Virus record (IMG/VR): IMGVR_UViG_3300048908_000031 | Source: a virus | Length of the DNA: 49,693 nt | Reading direction: 5' to 3' (one strand) | Shown: positions 679 through 41,589 of the stretch, piece by piece | How positions within the stretch are numbered: position 1 is the first letter of the stretch | Layout of the letters: each line of letters begins with the position of its first letter | Made by a program: the position numbers and the translations under genes | The notes under the pieces: generated by a model | Database searches by the model: none | Told to the model about the DNA's origin: nothing | Seen by the model: only the letters and a program-made list of their open reading frames with translations

Positions 679-1284
679 TTATTGGCACGGCTCCCAGCCA
701 GGAACGCTAAGTCGAACCAAAGTTCTGGCTGTATCCATAGGCACTGGCAGTGATTCGTGAATCATCGTCACGTTGCCGGCATAGGCCACTCCAGCGAGCA
801 GGCGAACCTCGGAGAGCTGCGACAAATCCATCATCGAGCAGTCTCCACCCTCTCCTGGCATTTCATAGAACTCGCCGATCAATGCGCGGGATGCGCTGAC
901 ATCTGAAGCAAGAATCAAGGCTTCCGGCGCAGAAAAGTCGCACTGCGACCAGCCTGGGCTTGGATTCTGCCATTTTCCAGCATGGCCTCCACCTCCACCA
1001 TGTCGGCCTTTAGCAGCGATCCAATACCCGTCAATATGGGCGCCGGGGCGCCGGTGCGAAGCATTCGCCCTAACTACGCCTTGATCCACCATTAGATAGA
1101 TTGGGCCATCAGTATCCACGCCGACAAGCATCTGGTTGACAGTTTCCTGCCAGCGAGACAAGTCCGACGGCAGGCCTGTTTCAAGCCGGAATTCGCGCAT
1201 GTAGATGCGCTCCGCCAGGAACGACGGAAACTCAACCTTGCCAATTTCAGTAACGCGACTGACATTCTTGTTTGTGTAAGTCAT
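679..1284 (-). CDS. Putative Fe(II)/2-oxoglutarate dioxygenase-like protein
   Basis: 201 aa. HxD in AHIDG (res 83-85), a distal His in MIHES (res 176) and RxS in VRLSV (res 191-193). ATGA overlap with the recombinase stop. Confidence 0.4.
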   Translation of the reverse strand: MTYTNKNVSRVTEIGKVEFPSFLAERIYMREFRLETGLPSDLSRWQETVNQMLVGVDTDGPIYLMVDQGVVRANASHRRPGAHIDGYWIAAKGRHGGGGGHAGKWQNPSPGWSQCDFSAPEALILASDVSASRALIGEFYEMPGEGGDCSMMDLSQLSEVRLLAGVAYAGNVTMIHESLPVPMDTARTLVRLSVPGWEPCQ

Positions 1285-1901
1285 TTCGGATCCTCGTCAA
1301 TTTGTTTATCGCGAATCTTGGCTACTGTGGTCGGGCTGCACTCGGCCAATTCGGCCACCCGCTTCACCGATAGCGTCTTGTCGGTCATCAGCGCCTTCAC
1401 CCGTGCGTGCAGCAGCACGTCAACCGGCCTGCCCTTGTACTTCCCGGCCTTCTTGCTTTCTGCGATCCCTTGAGCCTGTCGGGTAGCTCGCGTCTCCCAG
1501 TCATCACGCGCCATCTGCATGGCAACCTTGAGCAGCATGTCCTGCACTGCATCGAGGATGATCCGGGCCATTCCGCCGGCCTGAATGTCGGACAGGTCGA
1601 CAATCCCCGGCACCACTAGCTTCGCCCCCTTCCCTTTGATCGCCGCAATGATCGCTTCTGCCTCTGGCAATGGCGCCCGCGTGATGCGATCCATCTTCTC
1701 TGCGATCACCACGTCACCCGGCTGCAAATCGGCAATCATCCGATTCAGTGCAGGCCGGTCAGCGCTGGTGCCGCTCATCTTGTCCTCGTAAATCCCCGCA
1801 ATGTAATAGCCTTCATCCATCGCCTTTCCTACCAATGCCCGCTGCCGCTCAAGATCCTGTTCGGCTGTGCTGACGCGCAGGTACACCCTGGCATTCTTCA
1901 T
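1281..1901 (-). CDS. Small serine recombinase (resolvase/invertase family) with C-terminal HTH
   Basis: The N-terminus VYLRVSTAEQDLERQ carries the catalytic Ser motif. Also present are the EKMDRITR motif and a C-terminal HTH, LSVKRVAELAECSPTTVAKI. 206 aa. Confidence 0.9.
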   Translation of the reverse strand: MKNARVYLRVSTAEQDLERQRALVGKAMDEGYYIAGIYEDKMSGTSADRPALNRMIADLQPGDVVIAEKMDRITRAPLPEAEAIIAAIKGKGAKLVVPGIVDLSDIQAGGMARIILDAVQDMLLKVAMQMARDDWETRATRQAQGIAESKKAGKYKGRPVDVLLHARVKALMTDKTLSVKRVAELAECSPTTVAKIRDKQIDEDPK

Positions 1902-1920
1902 AACCTGCTCACTCGTTGTT

Positions 1921-1990
1921 TTGAGTAGCCAGTAAATCAGAACACATTTAGGATCGTCAATATAAATATTTGCCTATTGGAAACATTGGG
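1921..1990. promoter_or_regulatory. AT-rich segment upstream of the recombinase gene; candidate promoter and/or recombination (att/res-like) site
   Basis: A sharp local AT-rich island (cgtcaatataaatatttgcctattgg, with palindrome AAATATTT) sits in an otherwise GC-rich genome. It lies between a hairpin (GCCTCggctGAGGC, 2000-2013) and the recombinase start. Confidence 0.35.
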
Positions 1991-2033
1991 CCGGGAATCG
2001 CCTCGGCTGAGGCGTACCCAAAGTGAGAGGGGC

Positions 2034-2222
2034 CTACAGCAACCCCGCAAAGTCTTCCAGTAGGCCATCGCGATCTTCCCGCAACCCATCCCGCTCCTTG
2101 CTCAGCGCCTCAAACTTGCGATGCACATAGCGCGCTGTCGTCTCACCCGGCAGCATGTCAGCAGGGATAGCGGCGCCTCTCAGCACGGCTTCCCATTCGT
2201 GGACGGTCAGTTGTTCGGTCAT
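2034..2222 (-). CDS. Hypothetical protein (62 aa)
   Basis: ORF in the operon orientation with coding-like composition; no recognisable motif. Confidence 0.5.
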   Translation of the reverse strand: MTEQLTVHEWEAVLRGAAIPADMLPGETTARYVHRKFEALSKERDGLREDRDGLLEDFAGLL

Positions 2223-2251
2223 GGTGATGCTCCGTGCTTTGGCGGTTGTGG

Positions 2252-2977
2252 TTAGATGGCCATTTCGGCCTGTGTTTCTCGCAGCCAGATGGGAGAGCTG
2301 TTGTGTGATTCGATCCTATCTGCGATCACATTGGCACGCTGGCCTGCCGTTGGCGGAACGTACATCCCGTAGCGCTTGATGCTGCCTCCGTTGACCGTTG
2401 CATTTGTAGAGTCAGCCGAAGTCAGCGGCAGGTGCTGGAAGATCTCCGGGTTAAGCATGCGCAAACCATGCAGTCGACAGATCGGCCGTCCGTGCTCATC
2501 GCAGATTTCATTCATCGCCGCGCCTATGCGCTTCCACCATGGCTTTGTGCCTGGCGATGACCACTGGCCCGAACTACCGATTGCAACTGTCGGCCATTCA
2601 GTGGCCAGACGCTGAAGACGCTCAAGCGATTCGTGCAAATGCCAGACCGGAACGCCGCGAAACTCCTTTGGCCACTCTGCCAACAGCGCGTCATTCGCCG
2701 CCTCGTTACCGTCGATCACGTCAGGGATAAGTGCCCAATCGAAGCCTGGATGCCTATGCCACTGTTCAACCCAGCGGGTATACCCGTCGACGTCCATTGG
2801 CACGCCCTTCGTCCAGGCCGAGAACGCACCGTTATCAAAAACAAATGACTGGCAGGCCTCGGCAACGATGCCCATGTCATCCTGGCGTGGGAACGGCACT
2901 AATGCATGGCGCCCCATGAGAAAGCTGGCCTTGCAGTTGAGCGTCCCACCGACTGGCGTACCGTGGTAATGGATCAT
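2252..2977 (-). CDS. TGT-superfamily TIM-barrel protein, DpdA-like putative DNA 7-deazaguanine transglycosylase
   Basis: 241 aa with alternating beta/alpha pattern. FVFDNGAFSAW resembles TGT LTDSGGFQ, LHGLRML resembles TGT LMGVG, and LTSADSTNA resembles the catalytic Asp strand. ATGA-coupled to the QueF-like gene. Confidence 0.45.
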   Translation of the reverse strand: MIHYHGTPVGGTLNCKASFLMGRHALVPFPRQDDMGIVAEACQSFVFDNGAFSAWTKGVPMDVDGYTRWVEQWHRHPGFDWALIPDVIDGNEAANDALLAEWPKEFRGVPVWHLHESLERLQRLATEWPTVAIGSSGQWSSPGTKPWWKRIGAAMNEICDEHGRPICRLHGLRMLNPEIFQHLPLTSADSTNATVNGGSIKRYGMYVPPTAGQRANVIADRIESHNSSPIWLRETQAEMAI

Positions 2978-3219
2978 GCCGCCAGCCTTACCGTTTCAAT
3001 CTCTACACCTTGGTGCGTGGCCGTTATCGTTTGATCTCCGCCCAGCGCCTCGGCCAGTCGATCAGCGATCTGCTCGTGCCATCCTTTCTTGATCAGTGCA
3101 GTGGCCGCCTTGATGTGCTCGACATGAATCATCGCCAGCGCCCTGATCTCAAGTCGATAGATGATCGCTTCTCCGTCGGACGGGCAGACAGCTGTAAAAG
3201 TGTGCCGGTAAGTATTCAT
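2974..3219 (-). CDS. Minimal QueF-like T-fold protein (81 aa)
   Basis: [20 protein letters not shown] resembles QueF [31 protein letters not shown] resembles VESKSLKLYL, and [12 protein letters not shown] resembles HEDCMNIIMNDL. The layout is beta-beta-alpha-alpha-beta-beta, and the N-terminal NADPH-binding part of QueF is absent. Confidence 0.45.
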   Translation of the reverse strand: [81 protein letters not shown]

Positions 3220-3258
3220 GGGAATTCCTTGCCCATAGCGGGCCGCTTGATTGATTGG

Positions 3259-3426
3259 TTATGCCGCAGGGGATCGCAGCCCATCCCGCTCAGCCCGCAC
3301 AATCGCATGGCGAATTCCTCGGCCAAGGTAGCGCTCGATCAGGTGCCAGGTGACGCCATCGGTGTGCAGCTCGTAGGCGAGCACGAGGGTTTCGCGGGTA
3401 TGCTTGAATTGGGCGCCGGGCTTCAT
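3259..3426 (-). CDS. Small hypothetical protein (55 aa), possible HTH
   Basis: The internal ATG forms an ATGA overlap with the upstream stop at 3423-3426. Product is MKPGAQFKHTRETLVLAYELHTDGVTWHLIERYLGRG... Confidence 0.45.
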   Translation of the reverse strand: MKPGAQFKHTRETLVLAYELHTDGVTWHLIERYLGRGIRHAIVRAERDGLRSPAA

Positions 3427-3968
3427 GGCTTCGTCTCGCCGGTATAGGTTCGCCACGGCATATTGCGGCCGCTGACCATGAAGCCCCAGTCGCCACGCCA
3501 CTTGCTGGTGATGAACAGAGTGAATGCGCCTTCTGGCTGCACGTAGTCGATGCGGTGGTACTCGCCGAACGTCAGTGTCGCGGTATCACCCGAACGGCGG
3601 ATGATTCGCACTCGTCGCGTTACCGACAGGATCGATCTGGTTCCTTGGCGAATGGCTGGCCGCTCTTCGGTGTACCCGCCGCGCAGGATGATGGTGCGCG
3701 CATTCCACGGGTGCGAGTGCAGGTCGCGGTCAGCATCCGGCCGCATGATGTGGTGAATTCGGATCGACCACGGGAACCACCAGAATTTCGCCTTGTGCGT
3801 CTCGCGGCTGTACGGGTTGAACAGCCACCAGCGGCCCATGTACATGTCGGAACCGTCGGCGGACATGATGTGCTGGTACGGGGTGCGCTGGGCTCGGGCG
3901 ATGAGCCAGTTGGCGATGGCTGGGCGGGCAAGCAGCTTGGCGAGCAGGCGCCAGAAGAGATTGATCAT
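3423..3968 (-). CDS. Cupin-fold metalloprotein-like hypothetical protein
   Basis: 181 aa from MINLFW. Cupin motif 1-like LHSHPWNARTIILRGGYTEE and motif 2-like GDTATLTFGEYHRID. ATGA overlaps at both ends. Confidence 0.5.
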   Translation of the reverse strand: MINLFWRLLAKLLARPAIANWLIARAQRTPYQHIMSADGSDMYMGRWWLFNPYSRETHKAKFWWFPWSIRIHHIMRPDADRDLHSHPWNARTIILRGGYTEERPAIRQGTRSILSVTRRVRIIRRSGDTATLTFGEYHRIDYVQPEGAFTLFITSKWRGDWGFMVSGRNMPWRTYTGETKP

Positions 3969-4324
3969 GATTTCACCAGTTCGGCAGGGACGCGCACGGT
4001 GTCGCCCAGCTTGTTGGCGACGATGGCGCGGCAGGCAGCAATGATCGGTGTTTCTGCATGCCATGCCGCCGTTGAATCTGTCCAAGCGCATGGGTTGCAG
4101 GCTTCATCGGAGTAGATGATGCTGACGCGATACCTAGCGATAAGCGGGCCGCACTGGTGCCAGTTGAACGATGGCATCCAAGGGGATTGCAGGCCAGGAC
4201 ACACGTTTATGCGCAACTCCTTGCCGAGAGAATCGTCAATCACGATTTCGCAGGCCAATGCCACTGCCCAATCCAGCGCCGGGCCAATCAGTTCAGCCGT
4301 CTTCACTTCGGTCGTCTTATCCAT
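3965..4324 (-). CDS. DUF2591 (NinX-like) family protein, paralogue 1
   Basis: TAELIGPALDWAVA at the N-terminus and CRAIVANKLGDTVRVPAELV at the C-terminus. The C-terminus is nearly identical to that of the 20321..20710 product. Confidence 0.7.
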   Translation of the reverse strand: MDKTTEVKTAELIGPALDWAVALACEIVIDDSLGKELRINVCPGLQSPWMPSFNWHQCGPLIARYRVSIIYSDEACNPCAWTDSTAAWHAETPIIAACRAIVANKLGDTVRVPAELVKS

Positions 4325-4500
4325 CACTCACCCTCCTTCTGTGCCGCCCGGTACGCCCGGACGATCTTGTAAATAGCCGCCTTGCTCAACTTGAATCGCT
4401 TGGCGGCCTCGTCGGCGCTGTACGTCTGGTAGCACTCGATAATCTTGGCGTTGCGTGCTGCGTTCTTTCCCGGTTTCGGCCCGGACTTGTGAGTTTTCAT
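4324..4500 (-). CDS. Small HTH DNA-binding protein (58 aa), not in the supplied ORF track
   Basis: Product is MKTHKSGPKPGKNAARNAKIIECYQTYSADEAAKRFKLSKAAIYKIVRAYRAAQKEGE. It starts directly after the pentapeptide gene stop and has a TGATG overlap with the next gene. Confidence 0.6.
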   Translation of the reverse strand: MKTHKSGPKPGKNAARNAKIIECYQTYSADEAAKRFKLSKAAIYKIVRAYRAAQKEGE

Positions 4501-5079
4501 TCAGTCGGCTCCTTTCTCGGGCGCCTCATAAGGAACGGCAGGCGATGCTTCGATGATGGTTTTCAGAATCGGTTTCCAGATCGACCACCAGGCTGATGCG
4601 CGCGAATCCATTTCCTGAATTTCTTCATCGCCGAACGCCCACCACTCAGTCAATGCATGGAACTGGCAACCGATCTGCATCTTGTCCGCTGTGTACGTCA
4701 CCGGCCAGAGATCGCACTGCACAGACTTGACCTGCGACAGGTTGCCGAAAGCGCCCCATATCGAAGCGGCGTAGCGCAGGTCGGCGTAGCGCAGGTCGGC
4801 GTAGCTCAGGTCGGCGGAGCTCAGGCTGGCGTAGCGCAGGTCGGCGTAGCGCAGGTCGGCGGAGCTCAGGTTGGCGGAGCGCAGGCTGGCGTAGCGCAGG
4901 TCGGCGTAGCGCAGGTCGGCGGAGCGCAGGCTGGCGTAGCGCAGGTCGGCGTAGCGCAGGTCGGCGGAGCTCAGGTTGGCGGAGCTCAGGTTGGCGCGTT
5001 CGCCGCCCTCTTCATCGTTTAGCCATGCGCGGTGCTTCCGAATGATCTCGTCAAGTTGTTCAGTGGTGAAAGTTCGCAT
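4501..5079 (-). CDS. Pentapeptide-repeat protein: about 15 A(D/N)L(R/S)(Y/S) repeats plus a unique ~90-aa C-terminal domain
   Basis: [30 protein letters not shown]... is a canonical pentapeptide periodicity. 192 aa with RBS GGAG. Confidence 0.9.
4766..4995. repeat. About 15 tandem copies of a 15-bp unit (gcgtagcgcaggtcg / gcggagctcaggttg variants) inside the pentapeptide gene
   Basis: Near-identical 15-bp units with higher-order 45-60 bp periodicity are directly visible at 4766-4995. Confidence 0.9.
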
Positions 5080-5107: not shown

Positions 5108-5998
5108 TTAAAGTGCTGCGAGGGTCCGCTCATACAGGTCATCATGCTCGGCGGACATCGGTGATTTGGTGTTCTGGCGCTCGGCGACTAGCACGCCGCC
5201 CGACAGGAAGCCGGTGACGATCGGTGCGACGGTCTTGGCCTGCGTCACCAGAAACAGGTGGCCGTCGTTGATCACGTGCAGCTGCGAGCGCGGAATCAGG
5301 TTGGCCATCATGCGCATGTTGACCAGCGGAATCAGTGGGTCGTCATTGCCGGCCAGTACCAGCGTCGGCTGCTTGATCTTGTGCAGCCAGTGCGCTGAGG
5401 TCCATGCCCAAACCGCCATGGCTTGATAGTAATAACCGCGCCCGCTGGGCGATTTCATCTTGCTGGTGTGCGCGGTGGCCAGCGACTTGTCGTAACGGAA
5501 CGCGCCGCCGTAGATGTCCGGGGCGATGCGTGCACCGTGCTCGGGGTCGGTGTAGCGGCGTGGCGAGGCCATCAGGCTCAGCACCTTGAGTGATGGGGGC
5601 ACCATGGCGACCCCGCAGGAGGTGGCAGCAAGGATAAGTCGTCTGCACCGGTGCGGCTGGTCATAGGCGAACTGCTGGGCCAGAAAGCCTCCCCACGACA
5701 CGCCGATCACGTTGACTTGGTCATAGCCCATCACGTCCAGCATCGTGGCGACGGTCTTGGCCATGCCGCGAAAGGTGTACGGCAGCAGCGGAGCCGGCGA
5801 ACCTCCGACACCGGGCACGTCGAAAGCGATGATTTCTTGGTCAGGGTCCAGCTCATTGGTGAACGGGATGACCAAGTCCAGCGATGCGCCGATGCCGTTG
5901 AACACCACCAGCGGGGTCAGGTGCGATTTACCTGGGCGAACCGCCGTCCTGATTGACAGCCCATCCACTTGAACAGTGCGGAAAACAAAAGCCTTCAT
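5108..5998 (-). CDS. phaZ: Intracellular medium-chain-length polyhydroxyalkanoate depolymerase homologue (alpha/beta hydrolase)
   Basis: Colinear with Pseudomonas PhaZ as recalled: FRTVQVDGLSIRTAVRPGKSHLTPLVVFNGIGA, IAFDVPGVGGS, lipase box GVSWGG, MASPRRY, QPTLVLAGNDDPLIPL and DGHLFL. Start at MKAFVF with RBS GGAG. Confidence 0.85.
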   Translation of the reverse strand: MKAFVFRTVQVDGLSIRTAVRPGKSHLTPLVVFNGIGASLDLVIPFTNELDPDQEIIAFDVPGVGGSPAPLLPYTFRGMAKTVATMLDVMGYDQVNVIGVSWGGFLAQQFAYDQPHRCRRLILAATSCGVAMVPPSLKVLSLMASPRRYTDPEHGARIAPDIYGGAFRYDKSLATAHTSKMKSPSGRGYYYQAMAVWAWTSAHWLHKIKQPTLVLAGNDDPLIPLVNMRMMANLIPRSQLHVINDGHLFLVTQAKTVAPIVTGFLSGGVLVAERQNTKSPMSAEHDDLYERTLAAL

Positions 5999-6015
5999 TT
6001 CGTCGTGCTCCGGTT

Positions 6016-6033
6016 GGTCCTTATTGATGGACT
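6016..6033. promoter_or_regulatory. Operator-like inverted repeat, site G (minus strand reads AGTCCatcaataaGGACC)
   Basis: GGTCCttattgatGGACT lies immediately downstream of the putative -10 of the phaZ promoter. Confidence 0.55.
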
Positions 6034-6034
6034 C

Positions 6035-6063
6035 ACTATGCGCTGACAATCCGGTTAGGTCAA
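6035..6063 (-). promoter_or_regulatory. Candidate sigma70 promoter of the phaZ cassette (TTGACC-17-CATAGT)
   Basis: The minus strand reads TTGACC (6058-6063), a 17-nt spacer, then CATAGT (6035-6040). It sits between a terminator and the phaZ start. Confidence 0.45.
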
Positions 6064-6084
6064 CAAACAAGTCAACGATTTATG

Positions 6085-6565: not shown

Positions 6566-8053
6566 TCATGCGACCTCCTGGTCTCCGATTTCTTTAAGCA
6601 GTCGTCGGCCAATCCAGCGAACTACGGGAACGGCTTTGCTATTTCCGATCGCCTTGTAGCGGGGGCCGTCCGGGCACTCGCTTGCTGGCTTGCCGCGCCA
6701 GGGGATGAGGGTGTAATCGTCGGCCATACCCTGTAGGCGTTCGCACTCGACTGGAGTGAGGCGGCGCACAGAGCTCGTATGCGACACAATGTTGGGGCCC
6801 AGAGCTGAGTCCGTGTTGTCGACCTGTTTGCCGTAGTTGCAGGTCAGCGTCTGGGCCACTTCTCGACATGCAACAATCGGCTGACCGCGCCCGGTGCCAT
6901 CCTCGCTGCCGTCGAAACCCTCAGCCTTCAGCGTGTGGGTGATTTCTCCAGTGATGCACACAGCTACCTGGCCGCCGGCGTTTGCATGGCTGCCTGAGTG
7001 ATTCATTGCCCGCAGAGTGGGTGCAATTACCCCGGCATCGGCGCCGTGATCCTTGCAGGAGAAAGCCAGCACTGCATTTTCCTGGCCGTTGTTTCTGCCC
7101 AGAGCGTGCGCTTGGTCAATGCTTACACAGGGGTCTTGCGTACCGTGTACTACAAAGGCTTCGCTTTCGAAGTCCATCCTTCCGCTGGCGCTGGCGCACG
7201 CATTGCGTGCTGGAGCCACCTCAATTGGGCCGCTGGTGTTGTTCCCCCCGAACACCAGAAGGGATTCTCTCGACTCATGGTCACCATATGGGTTGGTCGT
7301 TAAAGCTGCAGTTACGTGAGGGATGTCGTCGGTGCTGTATCCGCCGTTCTTTCGAGCGCCGCCAGTAAGGGTGCCGGCAACATCTTTCCCCTGGCCTCGG
7401 CGCGGCGCAGTATCCCGGCGCACGCCTTCGCGCTCAAAAAGTACCTCGGTGGGATCGAACCCGTCTCGAGCACTTGCGACAACGAACACACGACGGCGTC
7501 GTTGGGCCAGGCCGAAATATTGGGCGTCCAAGATCCGCCATGCGATTGTTCTTTGGGGTCCATACACACAACCAGCGTCCGGCCACCTTTTCCCTGAAGG
7601 CTGCAGTTCGCAGTCTTCCCCAGCAAGCGCGCCAAGAAAGCATCCGAAGGCGTTGCCTTTGTCGGAAAGGACGCCGGGGACGTTTTCCCAGACAACGACA
7701 GAGGCTGGCAGTCCTCGACTGGCTCGAACATAGTCATTTGCATCTGCAAGCTCCACGTATTTGATGGTGAGGGCGCCGCGGGGGTCGGCAAGTCCTTCGC
7801 GCATGCCGGCCACACTGAATGCCTGGCAGGGGGTTCCGCCGACCAGAACGTCCGGCGCCTCGATCTTCCCAGCAAGGACCATGGTCGCAAGCCGTGTCAT
7901 GTCGCCCAGGTTCGGCGTTTGCGGGTAGTGGTGCGCCAGTACGGCGCTGGGGAATGGATCGATTTCAGCGAACCATGCGGCCTTCATTCCGAGCGGGTGC
8001 CAAGCTACCGTAGCAGCCTCTATTCCACTGCAAATGCTTCCGTAGGTGATCAT
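6566..8053 (-). CDS. DNA (cytosine-5)-methyltransferase
   Basis: Motifs in order: I (YGSICSGIEA), IV (GGTPCQAFSVAG), VI (WENVPG), VIII (QRRRRVFVV), IX (RRLTPVECERLQG) and X (AIGNS). The variable region between VIII and IX is long. Confidence 0.95.
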   Translation of the reverse strand: MITYGSICSGIEAATVAWHPLGMKAAWFAEIDPFPSAVLAHHYPQTPNLGDMTRLATMVLAGKIEAPDVLVGGTPCQAFSVAGMREGLADPRGALTIKYVELADANDYVRASRGLPASVVVWENVPGVLSDKGNAFGCFLGALAGEDCELQPSGKRWPDAGCVYGPQRTIAWRILDAQYFGLAQRRRRVFVVASARDGFDPTEVLFEREGVRRDTAPRRGQGKDVAGTLTGGARKNGGYSTDDIPHVTAALTTNPYGDHESRESLLVFGGNNTSGPIEVAPARNACASASGRMDFESEAFVVHGTQDPCVSIDQAHALGRNNGQENAVLAFSCKDHGADAGVIAPTLRAMNHSGSHANAGGQVAVCITGEITHTLKAEGFDGSEDGTGRGQPIVACREVAQTLTCNYGKQVDNTDSALGPNIVSHTSSVRRLTPVECERLQGMADDYTLIPWRGKPASECPDGPRYKAIGNSKAVPVVRWIGRRLLKEIGDQEVA

Positions 8054-33061: not shown

Positions 33062-33611
33062 CGACCTCGAAATGACCAAGGCCGTGTGCAGGATCGTCGT
33101 AGCGGCCACTGGACTGCCGGCGAACAAGGTCATCATTGGCGACCCCGGCACCTCCGCTCCCACAGACAGTTACTGCGCTGTGCGCCTGGACAATCCATCC
33201 CAGTACGGCCAGGCGCTCAACTCGCAGACCAACGTCGTCGCGACGGATGACCCGCAATACGAGGACATCCTCGCCAAGGTCGCCACCCAGTTCACCCTGG
33301 GCTTCAGCCTCAACTTCTACCGAGCGGGCGCCAAGCGTTACGCCGCCGCGATCTGCGAGGCGAACAAGCGCGAGCCGATTGCGGCCATCCTGCGCGCCGC
33401 CAAGCTCGGCTGGTCCCGTGTGTCACCGATCAACAACCTGACCGGCCTCTACCAGGCGGCCATGGAAGAACGCGCACAACTCACCCTGTACCTGTATGGC
33501 GAATCGATCGCCGAAGACCGCGTTCAGCGGATCTATCGCGCGGAATTCTCCGTGCAAACCGAACAATCTGGCGCCATTGCGCAAGGGGAAGTAAATGGCT
33601 TATCAGGCTGA
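33054..33611 (+). CDS. Hypothetical tail-completion-position protein
   Basis: ORF between the connector genes and the major tail gene. Confidence 0.45.
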   Translation: MLDDLEMTKAVCRIVVAATGLPANKVIIGDPGTSAPTDSYCAVRLDNPSQYGQALNSQTNVVATDDPQYEDILAKVATQFTLGFSLNFYRAGAKRYAAAICEANKREPIAAILRAAKLGWSRVSPINNLTGLYQAAMEERAQLTLYLYGESIAEDRVQRIYRAEFSVQTEQSGAIAQGEVNGLSG

Positions 33612-34725
33612 AGAAATTATCAACATCACCACGCTGATCAACTCGGCCGGGCTGGGCACTTCCAACTTTGGCGCAGGCATGTTCTTTGCTGACTTCGATT
33701 CGTCGAGTGATGTGACCTTTGTGACTGGCACCTACCGCGACTATGGCTCCCTTTCTCAGGTGGCGGCCAACTTCAACATCGCCTCCGACCCCTACGCAGC
33801 TGCACTGGCGTGGTTCTCGGCCGTGCCGAAGCCGAAGAGCCTGCGCATCTACCTGCGCATCGAAGAAGACACTCCAGTCGATTCGCATAACGATGCGATC
33901 AACAAAGGGATCTGGTTCTACTGGTTCGATTTCGAGACTTCCATTCGCGCCGTTGACGCTGACGTGCTGGCCCTGGCCGCAGCCGCCGATGCTGCTGGCA
34001 AGTTCTTCGCCTACACCTCGAACCAGGCGACCATCCGCGATCCGGCCGTCACGACCGACATTGTGACAAAGGCCGTGACTCAGGGATCGCGCCGTATGTT
34101 CGTGGCTAGCCATGCGACCGAACTGTATGAAGGCTTCGAGATTGCCGCGGTGTTCAGTCGTGTCAACTTCGACGCAGCGAACAGCACCATCACCGGTGAA
34201 TACAAGAAGCTGCCGGGCATCGACGCTGAAAGCCTGACCCCGACCGCTTACGGCGCGATGAAGTCGAAAGGCGCGGTGTTCTACACCGTCGTGGAAACCG
34301 GTGGCGAGAAGGACAGCGGCCGAATCATCAACTCGAAGACCACGTCGACCTTCGGAGAGTACATCGACGATGTATTCAACCTGGACGCCTTCGTCAACTT
34401 CATGACGGTCGCCCTGTACAACGCGCTGACTAAAGTGCCGACCAAGCTGCGGCAGACCCCGGCCGGTCAGCAAGTCCTGATCGATGCGGCTGCACAGGTC
34501 GGCGAGAAGTTCATCGGCAACGGCTACCTGGGCGAGCGCCTGTACACCGACGACCAGACCGGCGAAGAGAAGACCAGCCGCGGCTACGAGATCCTGACCA
34601 AAGCCGAAGATATTCTGTTGATCTCCGACGCCGAGCGTGCTGCCCGTGGCTCCGCTCCGATCCGCATGCGCATCTTCCGTGCAGGCGCCATCCACACCGT
34701 CGACCTGACGGCCAACGTAGAATAA
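33595..34725 (+). CDS. Major tail / sheath-like protein (DUF3383-like)
   Basis: 376 aa, followed by a tube-like DUF3277-type gene. Confidence 0.5.
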   Translation: MAYQAEEIINITTLINSAGLGTSNFGAGMFFADFDSSSDVTFVTGTYRDYGSLSQVAANFNIASDPYAAALAWFSAVPKPKSLRIYLRIEEDTPVDSHNDAINKGIWFYWFDFETSIRAVDADVLALAAAADAAGKFFAYTSNQATIRDPAVTTDIVTKAVTQGSRRMFVASHATELYEGFEIAAVFSRVNFDAANSTITGEYKKLPGIDAESLTPTAYGAMKSKGAVFYTVVETGGEKDSGRIINSKTTSTFGEYIDDVFNLDAFVNFMTVALYNALTKVPTKLRQTPAGQQVLIDAAAQVGEKFIGNGYLGERLYTDDQTGEEKTSRGYEILTKAEDILLISDAERAARGSAPIRMRIFRAGAIHTVDLTANVE

Positions 34726-39968: not shown

Positions 39969-40330
39969 CGGTACGAAAACTGGACGCTGACGGCGATCTG
40001 GCGCTGGGCAAGGAAGAATTCCTGACCGGCTACAGCGCCGAAGAGGTTGCGCAAAACGTCGTGACCCGCCTCAAGTTCTTCTTGGGTGAATGGTTCCTAA
40101 ACACCACCGACGGCACCGACTGGTTCGGCAGCGTGCTCGGCAAGGGCTCGGCCCTGGCCTCCCGCGAGTCGGTGATCCGTCGCCGCATCCTGCTGACGCC
40201 TGGCTGCGCCGGCATGACCGCCTTCAGCGTGACCTCGGATGCTCTAACCCGAGAATTGACGGTCAGCGCCTCCATTGTCAGCACCTCCGGCGAAACCGCC
40301 GACATCAATTTTGTCCAGGCGATCATCTAA
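39965..40330 (+). CDS. Baseplate wedge small subunit-like protein
   Basis: 121 aa, directly upstream of the baseplate J-like gene. Confidence 0.45.
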   Translation: MTVRKLDADGDLALGKEEFLTGYSAEEVAQNVVTRLKFFLGEWFLNTTDGTDWFGSVLGKGSALASRESVIRRRILLTPGCAGMTAFSVTSDALTRELTVSASIVSTSGETADINFVQAII

Positions 40331-41589
40331 TGGCTGAAATCACCGAACAAGGAATTACCGGGCGCTCGCTCAACGAGTACCTGAGCGATATCGAAACACG
40401 GACGCTGGCGATCGATCCTGACTGGAACATCGACGCCGACTCTCCGGACGGTCAACGCATCGGTATCGACTCCGAGCTGCTGGCCAACCTGGACGAGGCA
40501 GTAGTCGCCGTCTACCGCAGCAAAGATCCAGACAGCGCCACCGGTGAAGCCTTGCGCGATATCGGCAAGATTTCCGGCGTACCGATCCGCGAGGCGACCT
40601 ACTCCATTGCACCAATCACTGTGGTCGGCGCGGCTGGAACAGCCATACCGGCGAACTCGCAAGTGCGCAGTCGCATCGACAACAGTGTCTGGCTGACCAC
40701 CGCCATTATCGTCATCGGCCTCAGCGAGACGGCCACCGGTTTCGCTACCTGCGCCACTCCGGGCCGTGTGCTGGCCTCGGCCGGTGAGCTGACCGTCATC
40801 GGCACGCCCTACCCTGGCTGGGCAACGGTCACCAATGGCGAGGCGGCTGCTGGCGAAAACGCGGAAACCGATACCGATTTCCGCAAGCGCCGCAATGAAT
40901 CCGTGGCTCGCGCAGGCAGCAACATGCGCGACAACATGGTGGCCAACCTCGCCAGCGTGCCTGGCGTGACCGATGTCAAGGTGTTGGAGAACAGCAGCGA
41001 CGACCCGTTCGATGTCGACGGCGTTCCCTATTGCGGCATCGCCATCATCGTTAACGGTGGCAGCGATGCGGACGTGGGGCTGGCGATCTACCAGAAGCAC
41101 AACCCAGGCACACCAATGCTGCCACGGTACAGCGCCAAGACTGACACCTGGATCGATCCGCAAGGGGCGAATGGCGTCAAGGTCGAAGTGACCTCACCCG
41201 TCACCGGCAACAAGGACACCGTGACCTTCCAGCGCGCCACCGGCCTGCCGATCTTCGTGCACGTCACCTACCAAAAGGAAGGCGACCTGCCGAGCGACAT
41301 CGACACGCAGCTCAAGAACGCCATCGTCGCCGACTCGACCCGCCAGCTGTTCGACGGCGAAACCACCACCGGTTTCAACAAGGGCGGTTATGACATCGGC
41401 GAGAAGGTTGTGCCGGGTCGCCTGTACACGCCGGTGAACAAGGTGCTAGGTAAGTACGGCGACAGCTACGTCACCGCGCTGACCATCGGCCTTAACGCTA
41501 TCAGTCAAGGCCTGACCCCGATCCAGCCGACCATCGCCCAGATCGCCACCTTTGACGCCGACAACATCGCGGTTACGGTGATCCCATGA
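40330..41589 (+). CDS. Baseplate J-like protein
   Basis: 419 aa from MAEITEQGITGRSLNEYLSDIE..., with the EALRDIGKISGVPIREATYS pattern. Confidence 0.65.
   Translation: MAEITEQGITGRSLNEYLSDIETRTLAIDPDWNIDADSPDGQRIGIDSELLANLDEAVVAVYRSKDPDSATGEALRDIGKISGVPIREATYSIAPITVVGAAGTAIPANSQVRSRIDNSVWLTTAIIVIGLSETATGFATCATPGRVLASAGELTVIGTPYPGWATVTNGEAAAGENAETDTDFRKRRNESVARAGSNMRDNMVANLASVPGVTDVKVLENSSDDPFDVDGVPYCGIAIIVNGGSDADVGLAIYQKHNPGTPMLPRYSAKTDTWIDPQGANGVKVEVTSPVTGNKDTVTFQRATGLPIFVHVTYQKEGDLPSDIDTQLKNAIVADSTRQLFDGETTTGFNKGGYDIGEKVVPGRLYTPVNKVLGKYGDSYVTALTIGLNAISQGLTPIQPTIAQIATFDADNIAVTVIP

Follow-up and report, generated by a model that had tools for sequence, protein, structure and literature searches.

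DNA modifications of the 7-deazaguanine type shield the genomes of phages against Cas9 and restriction enzymes, and they are also the targets of newly found defence systems. Phages SfI, HK106, SPN3UB, BTP1, Athena1 and 7-11 encode the DNA transglycosylase DpdA alone (Hutinet et al. 2019, Supplementary Data 1), and the hosts of such DpdA-only phages usually carry the full queuosine pathway (Hutinet et al. 2019). What the DNA of these phages, many of them prophages of pathogens, contains and how they source the precursor have been an open point. The archaeal enzyme QueF-L forms a thioimide with preQ0 (7-cyano-7-deazaguanine) and acts on nucleic-acid-bound preQ0 using NH4+ (PMC5485725). Among phages, no QueF has been found to align with QueF-L, and all phage QueFs keep the motif for binding NADPH (Cui et al. 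2023). Here we describe a locus in IMG/VR virus record IMGVR_UViG_3300048908_000031, a stretch of 49,693 nucleotides (called the window below) in which the gene for a 241-amino-acid (aa) DpdA-like protein is preceded by a gene for an 81-aa protein that we call T81.

Our tentatively favoured reading is that these two genes act as a unit for 7-deazaguanine modification of DNA in a tailed phage or prophage of Pseudomonas, with the host supplying the base and T81 tailoring the inserted preQ0 nucleoside (dPreQ0). T81 is a T-fold protein that resembles QueF and QueF-L but is a plain member of neither family, and a QueF-L-like protein linked to DpdA bears both on what DpdA-only phages carry in their DNA and on how they source the precursor. 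The nearest homologues of DpdA and T81 are found overwhelmingly in Pseudomonas genomes and their prophages. Both open reading frames (ORFs) belong to a minus-strand gene run at the left end of the window, and the letters at their junction (...GCG GCA TGA TCC...) place the T81 stop codon across the DpdA ATG, an ATGA coupling. AAGG(A) ribosome-binding sites precede both genes. Because a scan of positions 1900-4600 revealed no sigma-70-like promoter and no terminator, the arrangement is consistent with co-transcription of T81 and DpdA with the genes upstream.

By sequence, the 241-aa product belongs to the DpdA family of phages, within the DpdA-only clade, and is predicted to have DNA transglycosylase activity. 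Its PHROG match is phrog_887 ('queuine tRNA-ribosyltransferase', E 1.5e-70). Comparisons by tblastn yielded 73% identity to a protein of Pseudomonas phage Epa33, 48.9% to BTP1 and SPN3UB, 47% to Vibrio phage Athena1, 43% to SfI and 36% to Salmonella phage 7-11 (E 1e-22), followed by the DpdAs of 9g (24.6%, E 2e-4), Iggy (24.5%, E 6e-4) and BcepGomr (22.5% across 227 aa). DNA modification has been measured in phages 7-11, 9g and Iggy, and the DNA of 7-11 contains the amide derivative dADG. Searches of Pfam, NCBIfam, PADLOC and the Protein Data Bank (PDB) with the 241-aa sequence produced no match, a search of the PDB with a profile from the DpdA alignment matched neither tRNA-guanine transglycosylase (TGT) nor DpdA, and the sequence lacks a CxCxxC motif of the zinc-binding type.

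The AlphaFold2 (AF2) model of this protein (128 sequences; mean predicted local distance difference test score, pLDDT, 87.8) is a beta/alpha barrel of alternating strands and helices. Its best Foldseek matches are Cap10 (9NTN), then bacterial TGT and archaeal TGT, with E values from 3e-4 to 5e-3; the solved Salmonella DpdA is not among the top 50. Residues that are invariant or nearly so in the family are D48-N49-G50-A51-F52, P85-D86, H170/R173 and S187-x-D189-S190, with D48, D86 and D189 each invariant or at least 90% conserved. In bacterial DpdA, D95 (with F99), D130 and D256 are invariant across DpdA and TGT, two of them are essential in vitro, and they serve as general acid/base, in base recognition and as nucleophile, respectively (PMC10164549). 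The order of D48 (with F52), D86 and D189, together with the D-x3-F spacing, equals that of the bacterial residues, a correspondence drawn from order and motif. The preliminary description of this DNA had proposed a DpdA-like TIM barrel and had quoted three TGT-like motifs. The family match, the tblastn series and the Foldseek matches bear out the first proposal, and the quoted motifs are present at conserved DpdA-family positions (D48-F52, H170/R173 and D189-S190).

Cap10 is a TGT-family enzyme of type IV CBASS (cyclic-oligonucleotide-based antiphage signalling system) that handles a 7-deazaguanine-protein conjugate, and it is this enzyme rather than a tRNA TGT that heads the structural ranking for DpdA. 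That rank could be taken to mean that the 241-aa protein acts on tRNA, as TGT does, or on protein, as Cap10 does, and that T81 serves such a pathway instead of DNA modification. We regard this as quite improbable, since the protein is related in sequence to DpdAs whose action on DNA is proven (9g, Iggy and 7-11), since several phages carry the gene amid genes for replication and DNA methyltransferases, and since neither Cap9/QueC nor a CD-NTase nor a tRNA-binding PUA domain was found.

Neither tblastn searches with proteins from BcepGomr, E. coli and B. subtilis nor local hidden Markov models (HMMs) detected FolE, QueD, QueE, QueC, QueF or YhhQ in the window, in agreement with the earlier statement that folE, queD, queE and queC are absent. 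DpdA without preQ0 genes is therefore real in the window, yet this is a situation already described. The proposal that the locus represents an undescribed compact route must accordingly be narrowed: DpdA without preQ0 genes was listed by Hutinet et al. 2019, whereas the T81 partner is not described in the literature that we searched (DpdA with prophages or preQ0, QueF-L with phages, and recent 7-deazaguanine work). The central idea of the preliminary description, a DpdA paired with a minimal T-fold of the QueF-L kind and reliant on preQ0 from the host, otherwise stands in large part.

The sole PHROG match of T81 is phrog_37496 (function unknown; E 1.7e-41), and its family comprises 270 clusters at 90% identity and at least 302 representatives at 50%. 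The AF2 model of T81, built from 82 sequences with a pLDDT of 97.9, is a beta-beta-alpha-alpha-beta-beta T-fold with strands at residues 2-11, 18-27, 62-69 and 72-78 and helices at 33-41 and 48-59. Comparison of both proteins with TGT and with QueF or QueF-L structures had been suggested as a check, and Foldseek returned TGT-family matches for the one and QueF-L matches for the other. Specifically, the top 13 PDB matches of T81 are all QueF-L chains (5K0P, apo; 5JYX, thioimide complex), with E values from 5e-4 to 2e-3 and query-normalised TM-scores (TMq) of 0.68-0.79, and these are followed by GTP cyclohydrolase I, V. cholerae QueF and a 6-pyruvoyltetrahydropterin synthase (PTPS). In the BFVD database, a 111-aa protein of an uncultured siphovirus (A0A8S5S4R5, annotated 'Archeaosine synthase') is among the top matches of the T81 model, with a TMq of 0.68, and this entry indicates that longer QueF-L-like proteins also occur in viral metagenomes.

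Profile-profile comparison identifies the residues that T81 shares with these enzymes. For this purpose, the QueF alignment contained B. subtilis QueF (identical to PDB 4F8B) and phage QueFs from GenBank, and the QueF-L sequence was taken from the supplement of PMC5485725 and checked against PDB 5JYX. In hhalign, the T81 profile aligned to QueF with a P value of 2.2e-5 and to QueF plus QueF-L with a probability of 89.6% (P 1.9e-6, 73 columns), as against a probability of 3.5% in the control comparison with PTPS-like mini-domains. Both runs place C12 (81/82 diverse family members; P13 80/82) on the Cys that forms the thioimide (B. subtilis C55, P. calidifontis C21). H48-E49 aligns on the His-Glu pair that anchors preQ0 (B. 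subtilis H96-E97), with E49 in 82/82 and H48 in 70/82, the other 12 having Gln. E34 (80/82) is aligned to QueF-L Glu46, the position of the Lys in the QueF NADPH motif. Other residues are conserved in T81 itself: Y4 and H69 (82/82), N2 and Y21 (81/82), R78 (78/82) and D/N15 (75/82). H69 lies in the turn between strands 3 and 4, on the same sheet edge of the model as C12. These results uphold the description of the ATGA-coupled 81-aa neighbour as a T-fold with the QueF thioimide Cys.

That description had also noted that T81 lacks the NADPH-binding N-terminal part of QueF, and in the alignment both the N-terminal part and the NADPH motif are missing. The segment of T81 that aligns with the motif E(S/L)K(S/A)hK(L/Y)(Y/F/W) is I-H-V-E-H-I-K-A-A, and a QueF-type N-terminal extension is absent. 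Because it does not carry the NADPH motif, T81 is not a QueF. Some phages are known to encode, next to DpdA, a QueF that makes preQ1 (PMC10516641), and T81 has the QueF Cys and His-Glu residues, so one might suppose that it is a miniature true QueF, which would reduce the nitrile and provide preQ1 to be inserted as dPreQ1. This possibility seems very remote to us: the Lys position of the NADPH motif is a conserved Glu in T81, as it is in QueF-L, the N-terminal extension and Asp62 are missing, and DpdAs that have no T81 but share 95% identity with T81-linked ones argue against a switch in the inserted base.

The association between T81 and DpdA is strict in one direction only. Viral contigs of IMG/VR were searched with a 10-sequence T81 subset for close relatives and with the fusion protein P0353 for distant relatives (another fusion, P0348, matched no viral contig as a query). 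DpdA is immediately downstream of T81 in all 80 close loci, where the genes usually overlap, and in all 64 distant loci (144/144 in total), while the other neighbours of the pair vary. Only four of 50,697 phage records, representing three distinct phages, contain T81 by tblastn, and it adjoins a DpdA homologue each time. The order is Dam-like methylase, T81, DpdA and C5 methylase in Epa33 (two records); a Vut_1/YhhQ-type transporter, an 81-aa unknown protein, T81 and DpdA in Rhizobium phage RHph_X2_30; and DpdA followed by T81, the reverse arrangement, in Microcystis phage Mae-JY30. Conversely, among 80 loci collected with a DpdA profile, T81 is present in 35, QueD/PTPS is upstream in 3 and neither is found in 38. 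DpdAs without T81 reach 93-96% identity to those linked to T81. The co-occurrence proposed as a check of the pairing thus holds for T81, which always accompanies DpdA, but not for DpdA, which is often found without T81. T81 is thus a DpdA-specific accessory, though an optional one.

Other genes can take the place of T81 next to DpdA. At one locus (L185, 564-1043), a Vut_1/YhhQ transporter gene overlaps the DpdA start and fills the T81 slot; the DpdA encoded there shares 96% identity with one that is linked to T81. At another (L186, 2576-3004), a chimeric ORF upstream of DpdA keeps only the last ~30 T81 residues. At these two loci the position resembles a recombination hot spot. QueD/PTPS is upstream of DpdA at loci L220 and L234 and in Caulobacter phage DMCA. 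There are also fusions of T81 with PTPS-like domains, in the order PTPS-like then T81 (P0353 and P0358) or T81 then PTPS-like (P0348). The P0353 and P0348 fusion genes directly precede DpdA on their contigs, and no DpdA is visible on the short contig of P0358. These interchangeable DpdA partners all point to 7-deazaguanine or pterin chemistry.

Additional small proteins occur in the same setting. Mini PTPS/QueD-like proteins of 98-109 aa are encoded upstream of DpdA (L092, 5705-6001; L095, 5965-6294) or occur as one half of a T81 fusion; the H...HGH zinc motif is retained in them and the Cys of the QueD 'CxxxHGH' signature is absent, so that they may not be true QueD enzymes. A protein of 80-84 aa and unknown function, hypB, has the motif GGLE.RFI.ER.DG.PI...RYS.VLDFSGADPHA and adjoins DpdA-clade genes in alphaproteobacterial phages (L092 in Caulobacter phage DMCA, 6723-6977; L003 in RHph_X2_30, 4748-4993; L095, 6284-6526). 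It accompanies either the mini-PTPS or T81 plus YhhQ, has no Pfam match and is absent from the window. Some T81s are extended at the N terminus, with one domain shared by P0260 and P0253 (...DDLDD.AR.IQ.AI.Q.DGGLAG.FF...) and another by P0333 and P0361; neither has a Pfam match, and the extensions are either fusions or gene-calling run-ons. The 91-aa product of the gene upstream of DpdA in BcepGomr (gp32) and DMCA gp033 were considered as T81 homologues and are not homologous.

Under the mechanism that we favour, DpdA would first exchange guanine in phage DNA for host-made preQ0, as its family membership suggests, with one Asp as general acid/base and another as nucleophile, a pair conserved in TGT and DpdA. 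T81 would then act as a T-fold oligomer, a role suggested by its fold, its conserved residues and its linkage. Glu49 and His48 would bind the 2-amino-4-oxo-pyrimidine face of preQ0, and Cys12 would attack the nitrile to form a thioimide, as occurs in QueF and QueF-L. With dPreQ0 already in DNA as the substrate, resolution of this thioimide by ammonia would give dG+ (the amidine), and resolution by water would give dADG (the amide), in parallel to the action of QueF-L on tRNA that contains preQ0. Because T81 has no NADPH site, it could not reduce the adduct, and formation of preQ1 is very unlikely. As near-identical DpdAs occur without it, T81 would be an optional add-on, one that improves or increases the modification and is not needed to bring it about. 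The existence of near-identical DpdAs with and without T81 also makes it unlikely that T81 alters which free base DpdA accepts, and this fits both tailoring and supply of the base. DNA methyltransferase genes provide supporting context: in Epa33 they sit on both sides of the pair, and in the window they are close by. Somewhat less securely than this mechanism, we propose that T81 represents a new and widespread DpdA-coupled T-fold enzyme family in phages of Pseudomonas, rhizobia and cyanobacteria, in which the Cys and a non-Asp partner (perhaps His69) would convert host preQ0, most likely after its insertion into DNA, to dG+, dADG or an undescribed derivative.

Several observations weigh against this proposal. 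An Asp seven residues after the Cys is the general acid/base common to QueF and QueF-L (PMC5485725), and the corresponding position in T81 (B. subtilis D62, P. calidifontis D28) is I19, where the 82 members have Ile (67), Val (14) or Leu (1). The missing Asp is probably replaced by other invariant residues, H69 and Asp/Asn15, although this suggestion from the model is speculative. Because of the lost Asp and an identity of 16-18%, T81 is not a plain QueF-L either, and the likeness to QueF-L noted in the preliminary description holds for the closest solved structure and not for the shared catalytic Asp. Sequence-level searches with T81 (Pfam, NCBIfam, PADLOC, phmmer and hmmsearch of the PDB, and a QueF-family HMM) gave no connection to QueF, and 0/82 diverse members match any Pfam family, the QueF models included. 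Since these sequence-to-profile searches were empty, the link to QueF and QueF-L rests on profile-profile and predicted-structure comparison. In the latter, QueF-L could owe its top rank partly to being the smallest T-fold in the PDB. On average, the T81 proteins are mildly acidic, and no DNA-binding charge is obvious in them, although net charge proved uninformative as a clue to DNA binding. Support for the TGT fold of DpdA is modest (E 3e-4, TMq 0.5-0.65), and generic TIM barrels are close behind. Finally, the genes that share or replace the T81 slot, YhhQ and QueD, concern precursor supply, and this suits a role of T81 in supply no less than one in tailoring.

This last point leads to the alternative that T81 captures free host preQ0, covalently via Cys12 or otherwise, shields it from being reduced to preQ1 by host QueF and hands it to DpdA, such that the DNA would carry plain dPreQ0 in a greater amount than DpdA alone could achieve. 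We consider this possible, if somewhat unlikely. YhhQ/Vut_1 occupies the T81 slot at L185 and stands beside T81 in RHph_X2_30, QueD/PTPS takes the T81 position elsewhere, and the fusion of T81 to a PTPS-like small-molecule T-fold suggests a small-molecule ligand. The thioimide of QueF-L with free preQ0 is stable and unreactive (PMC5485725), so a QueF-like protein without cofactor or Asp could be a reservoir, and the T81 surface has no basic charge. However, a stoichiometric sponge would be an unusual solution, the near-invariant Cys-Pro, His69, Tyr4 and Tyr21 look catalytic rather than like a simple binding site, and the closest structural relative acts on nucleic acid. Slot sharing is itself not decisive, as phage 7-deazaguanine clusters also put tailoring enzymes beside DpdA.

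The empty HMM-to-sequence searches and the absent Asp could also mean that the likeness to QueF-L is one of fold only, and that T81 serves DpdA without catalysis, as a T-fold subunit or a regulator (a specificity or assembly factor, for instance), or acts on another pterin or purine that has nothing to do with preQ0. GTP cyclohydrolase I and PTPS are likewise among the fold matches, and translational coupling and strict adjacency would fit a protein-protein partnership. Nevertheless, we judge this explanation unlikely. The Cys-Pro and His-Glu residues align exactly with those of QueF and QueF-L (P ~2e-6) and the PTPS control fails, the Glu that opens helix 2, the ligand anchor of T-folds, is invariant, and the near-identical DpdAs that lack T81 indicate that it is not an obligatory subunit.

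Given these considerations, we rank tailoring slightly ahead of supply because the site looks catalytic, the nearest structure works on nucleic acid, and an optional single-gene upgrade matches the distribution of other phage tailoring enzymes. To our knowledge, QueF-L is the only T-fold enzyme known to act on nucleic acid. Our confidence in tailoring remains limited because the Asp is lost and there is no basic surface.

The remaining genes of the window (Table 1) place the pair in context. A cupin gene is located upstream of T81, with a possible small gene between the two. The preliminary description had counted the cupin with the module. Although the ORF is real, a search of Pfam with its product gave no match, and we rejected it as a third component because a cupin is present in only ~8/80 related T81-DpdA loci, at variable positions and on either side. 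The possible small gene shows no conservation across related loci, and an 80-aa ORF (3259-3501) considered as a conserved gene at the same place has no counterpart in them. Beyond the cupin, the upstream order is NinX, a helix-turn-helix (HTH) protein, a pentapeptide-repeat protein, an alpha/beta hydrolase and a C5 cytosine methyltransferase, and the presence of this methyltransferase in the same run of genes makes a second DNA modification in the phage probable. The recombinase and phrog_8970 pair sits directly downstream of the DpdA operon. Elsewhere the window encodes portal, Mu-F-like, DUF2213, major capsid (PF09950), DUF3383, tail lysozyme, baseplate J and terminase proteins, and it is a tailed phage or prophage. 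Because a baseplate J protein is encoded, the gene content suggests a baseplate-bearing tail that is myovirus-like rather than of the siphovirus type. A resemblance of the virion module to that of siphophages with dG+ or dPreQ0 had been put forward, and the baseplate J and DUF3383 proteins lend it no support.

Table 1. Positions, strands and supporting details of features in the window
Feature	Position	Strand	Details
Serine recombinase/invertase, then 201-aa phrog_8970 protein	679-1901	-	Resolvase domain, E 8e-24; phrog_8970 function unknown
DpdA ORF (241 aa)	2252-2977	-	phrog_887 match, fold, tblastn
T81 ORF (81 aa)	2974-3219	-	phrog_37496 match, predicted T-fold
Short spacer 5' of T81	3220-3258	-	AAGGA ribosome-binding site 8 nt before ATG
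Possible 55-aa gene MKPGAQFKHTRETLVLAYELHTDGVTWHLIERYLGRGIRHAIVRAERDGLRSPAA	3259-3426	-	Start overlaps cupin stop, second ATGA
Cupin-like protein	3423-3968	-	phrog_4786 'cysteine dioxygenase', E 6.7e-44; likely start 3968
Pentapeptide-repeat protein	4501-5079	-	ADLRY/ANLSS repeats
Alpha/beta-hydrolase-like protein	5108-6070	-	
C5 cytosine DNA methyltransferase (495 aa)	6566-8053	-	
Tail module: DUF3383 protein and baseplate J protein	33595-34725, 40090-41589	+	

T81 may represent either a new route for tailoring dPreQ0 or a new means by which phages divert a metabolite of the host, and in both cases it extends the T-fold/QueF family to a minimal form of 81 aa with an altered catalytic set. If the tailoring proposal is true, then temperate phages own a two-gene hypermodification kit of less than 1 kb, and T81 would be the first phage enzyme of the QueF-L type and the first shown to act on DNA. 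Furthermore, the interchangeable DpdA partners (T81, mini-PTPS, YhhQ and the unknown 80-aa protein) can guide the annotation of thousands of hypothetical prophage genes.

With regard to known systems, the DpdA-only phages are like the window in their DpdA (36-49% identity), in having no preQ0 genes and in using a base that is presumed to be host-derived; tblastn found no T81 homologue in SfI, HK106, SPN3UB, BTP1, Athena1 or 7-11. In the bacterial Dpd system (DpdA/DpdB/DpdC), DpdA inserts preQ0 and DpdC turns dPreQ0 into dADG in DNA, which is the same two-step logic that we propose here. However, the window has no DpdB ATPase, no DpdC and no PADLOC matches to Dpd, and its DpdA is much smaller (241 aa) than the bacterial protein and lacks the bacterial insertions. 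The phage routes to dG+, DpdA with Gat-QueC in 9g and DpdA2 with ArcS in nt-1, each combine a transglycosylase with one enzyme that tailors the preQ0 nitrile, like the proposed pair. Those amidotransferases have unrelated folds and are encoded together with the full preQ0 pathway, whereas here the partner is an 81-aa T-fold and the host pathway would be borrowed.

The QueFs of B. subtilis (4F8B), V. cholerae (3BP1/4IQI) and phages Dp-1, phiSM and VH7D share with T81 the T-fold, a CPxxG loop and an (F/Y/W)HE motif, and the phage genes for QueF also adjoin dpdA, as T81 does. Unlike these proteins, T81 has no NADPH motif, no N-terminal extension and no Asp62, and a reductase role is very unlikely. 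The best structural match of T81 remains QueF-L of Pyrobaculum calidifontis (5K0P/5JYX), a single-module T-fold of ~100 aa. The Cys-Pro that ends strand 1 of T81 aligns with its Cys21, the His-Glu that starts helix 2 aligns as well, a Glu of T81 matches its Glu46, and both proteins have no NADPH motif. QueF-L likewise has as its partner a guanine transglycosylase, by which preQ0 is inserted into nucleic acid. T81 differs in its identity of only 16-18%, in an N terminus that is ~20 residues shorter, in the change of Asp28 to Ile or Val and in an invariant set of its own (N2, Y4, Y21, H69 and R78). Moreover, QueF-L is found in Crenarchaeota alongside the archaeal TGT (arcTGT), a tRNA enzyme, whereas T81 is found in bacterial phages beside DpdA, a DNA enzyme.

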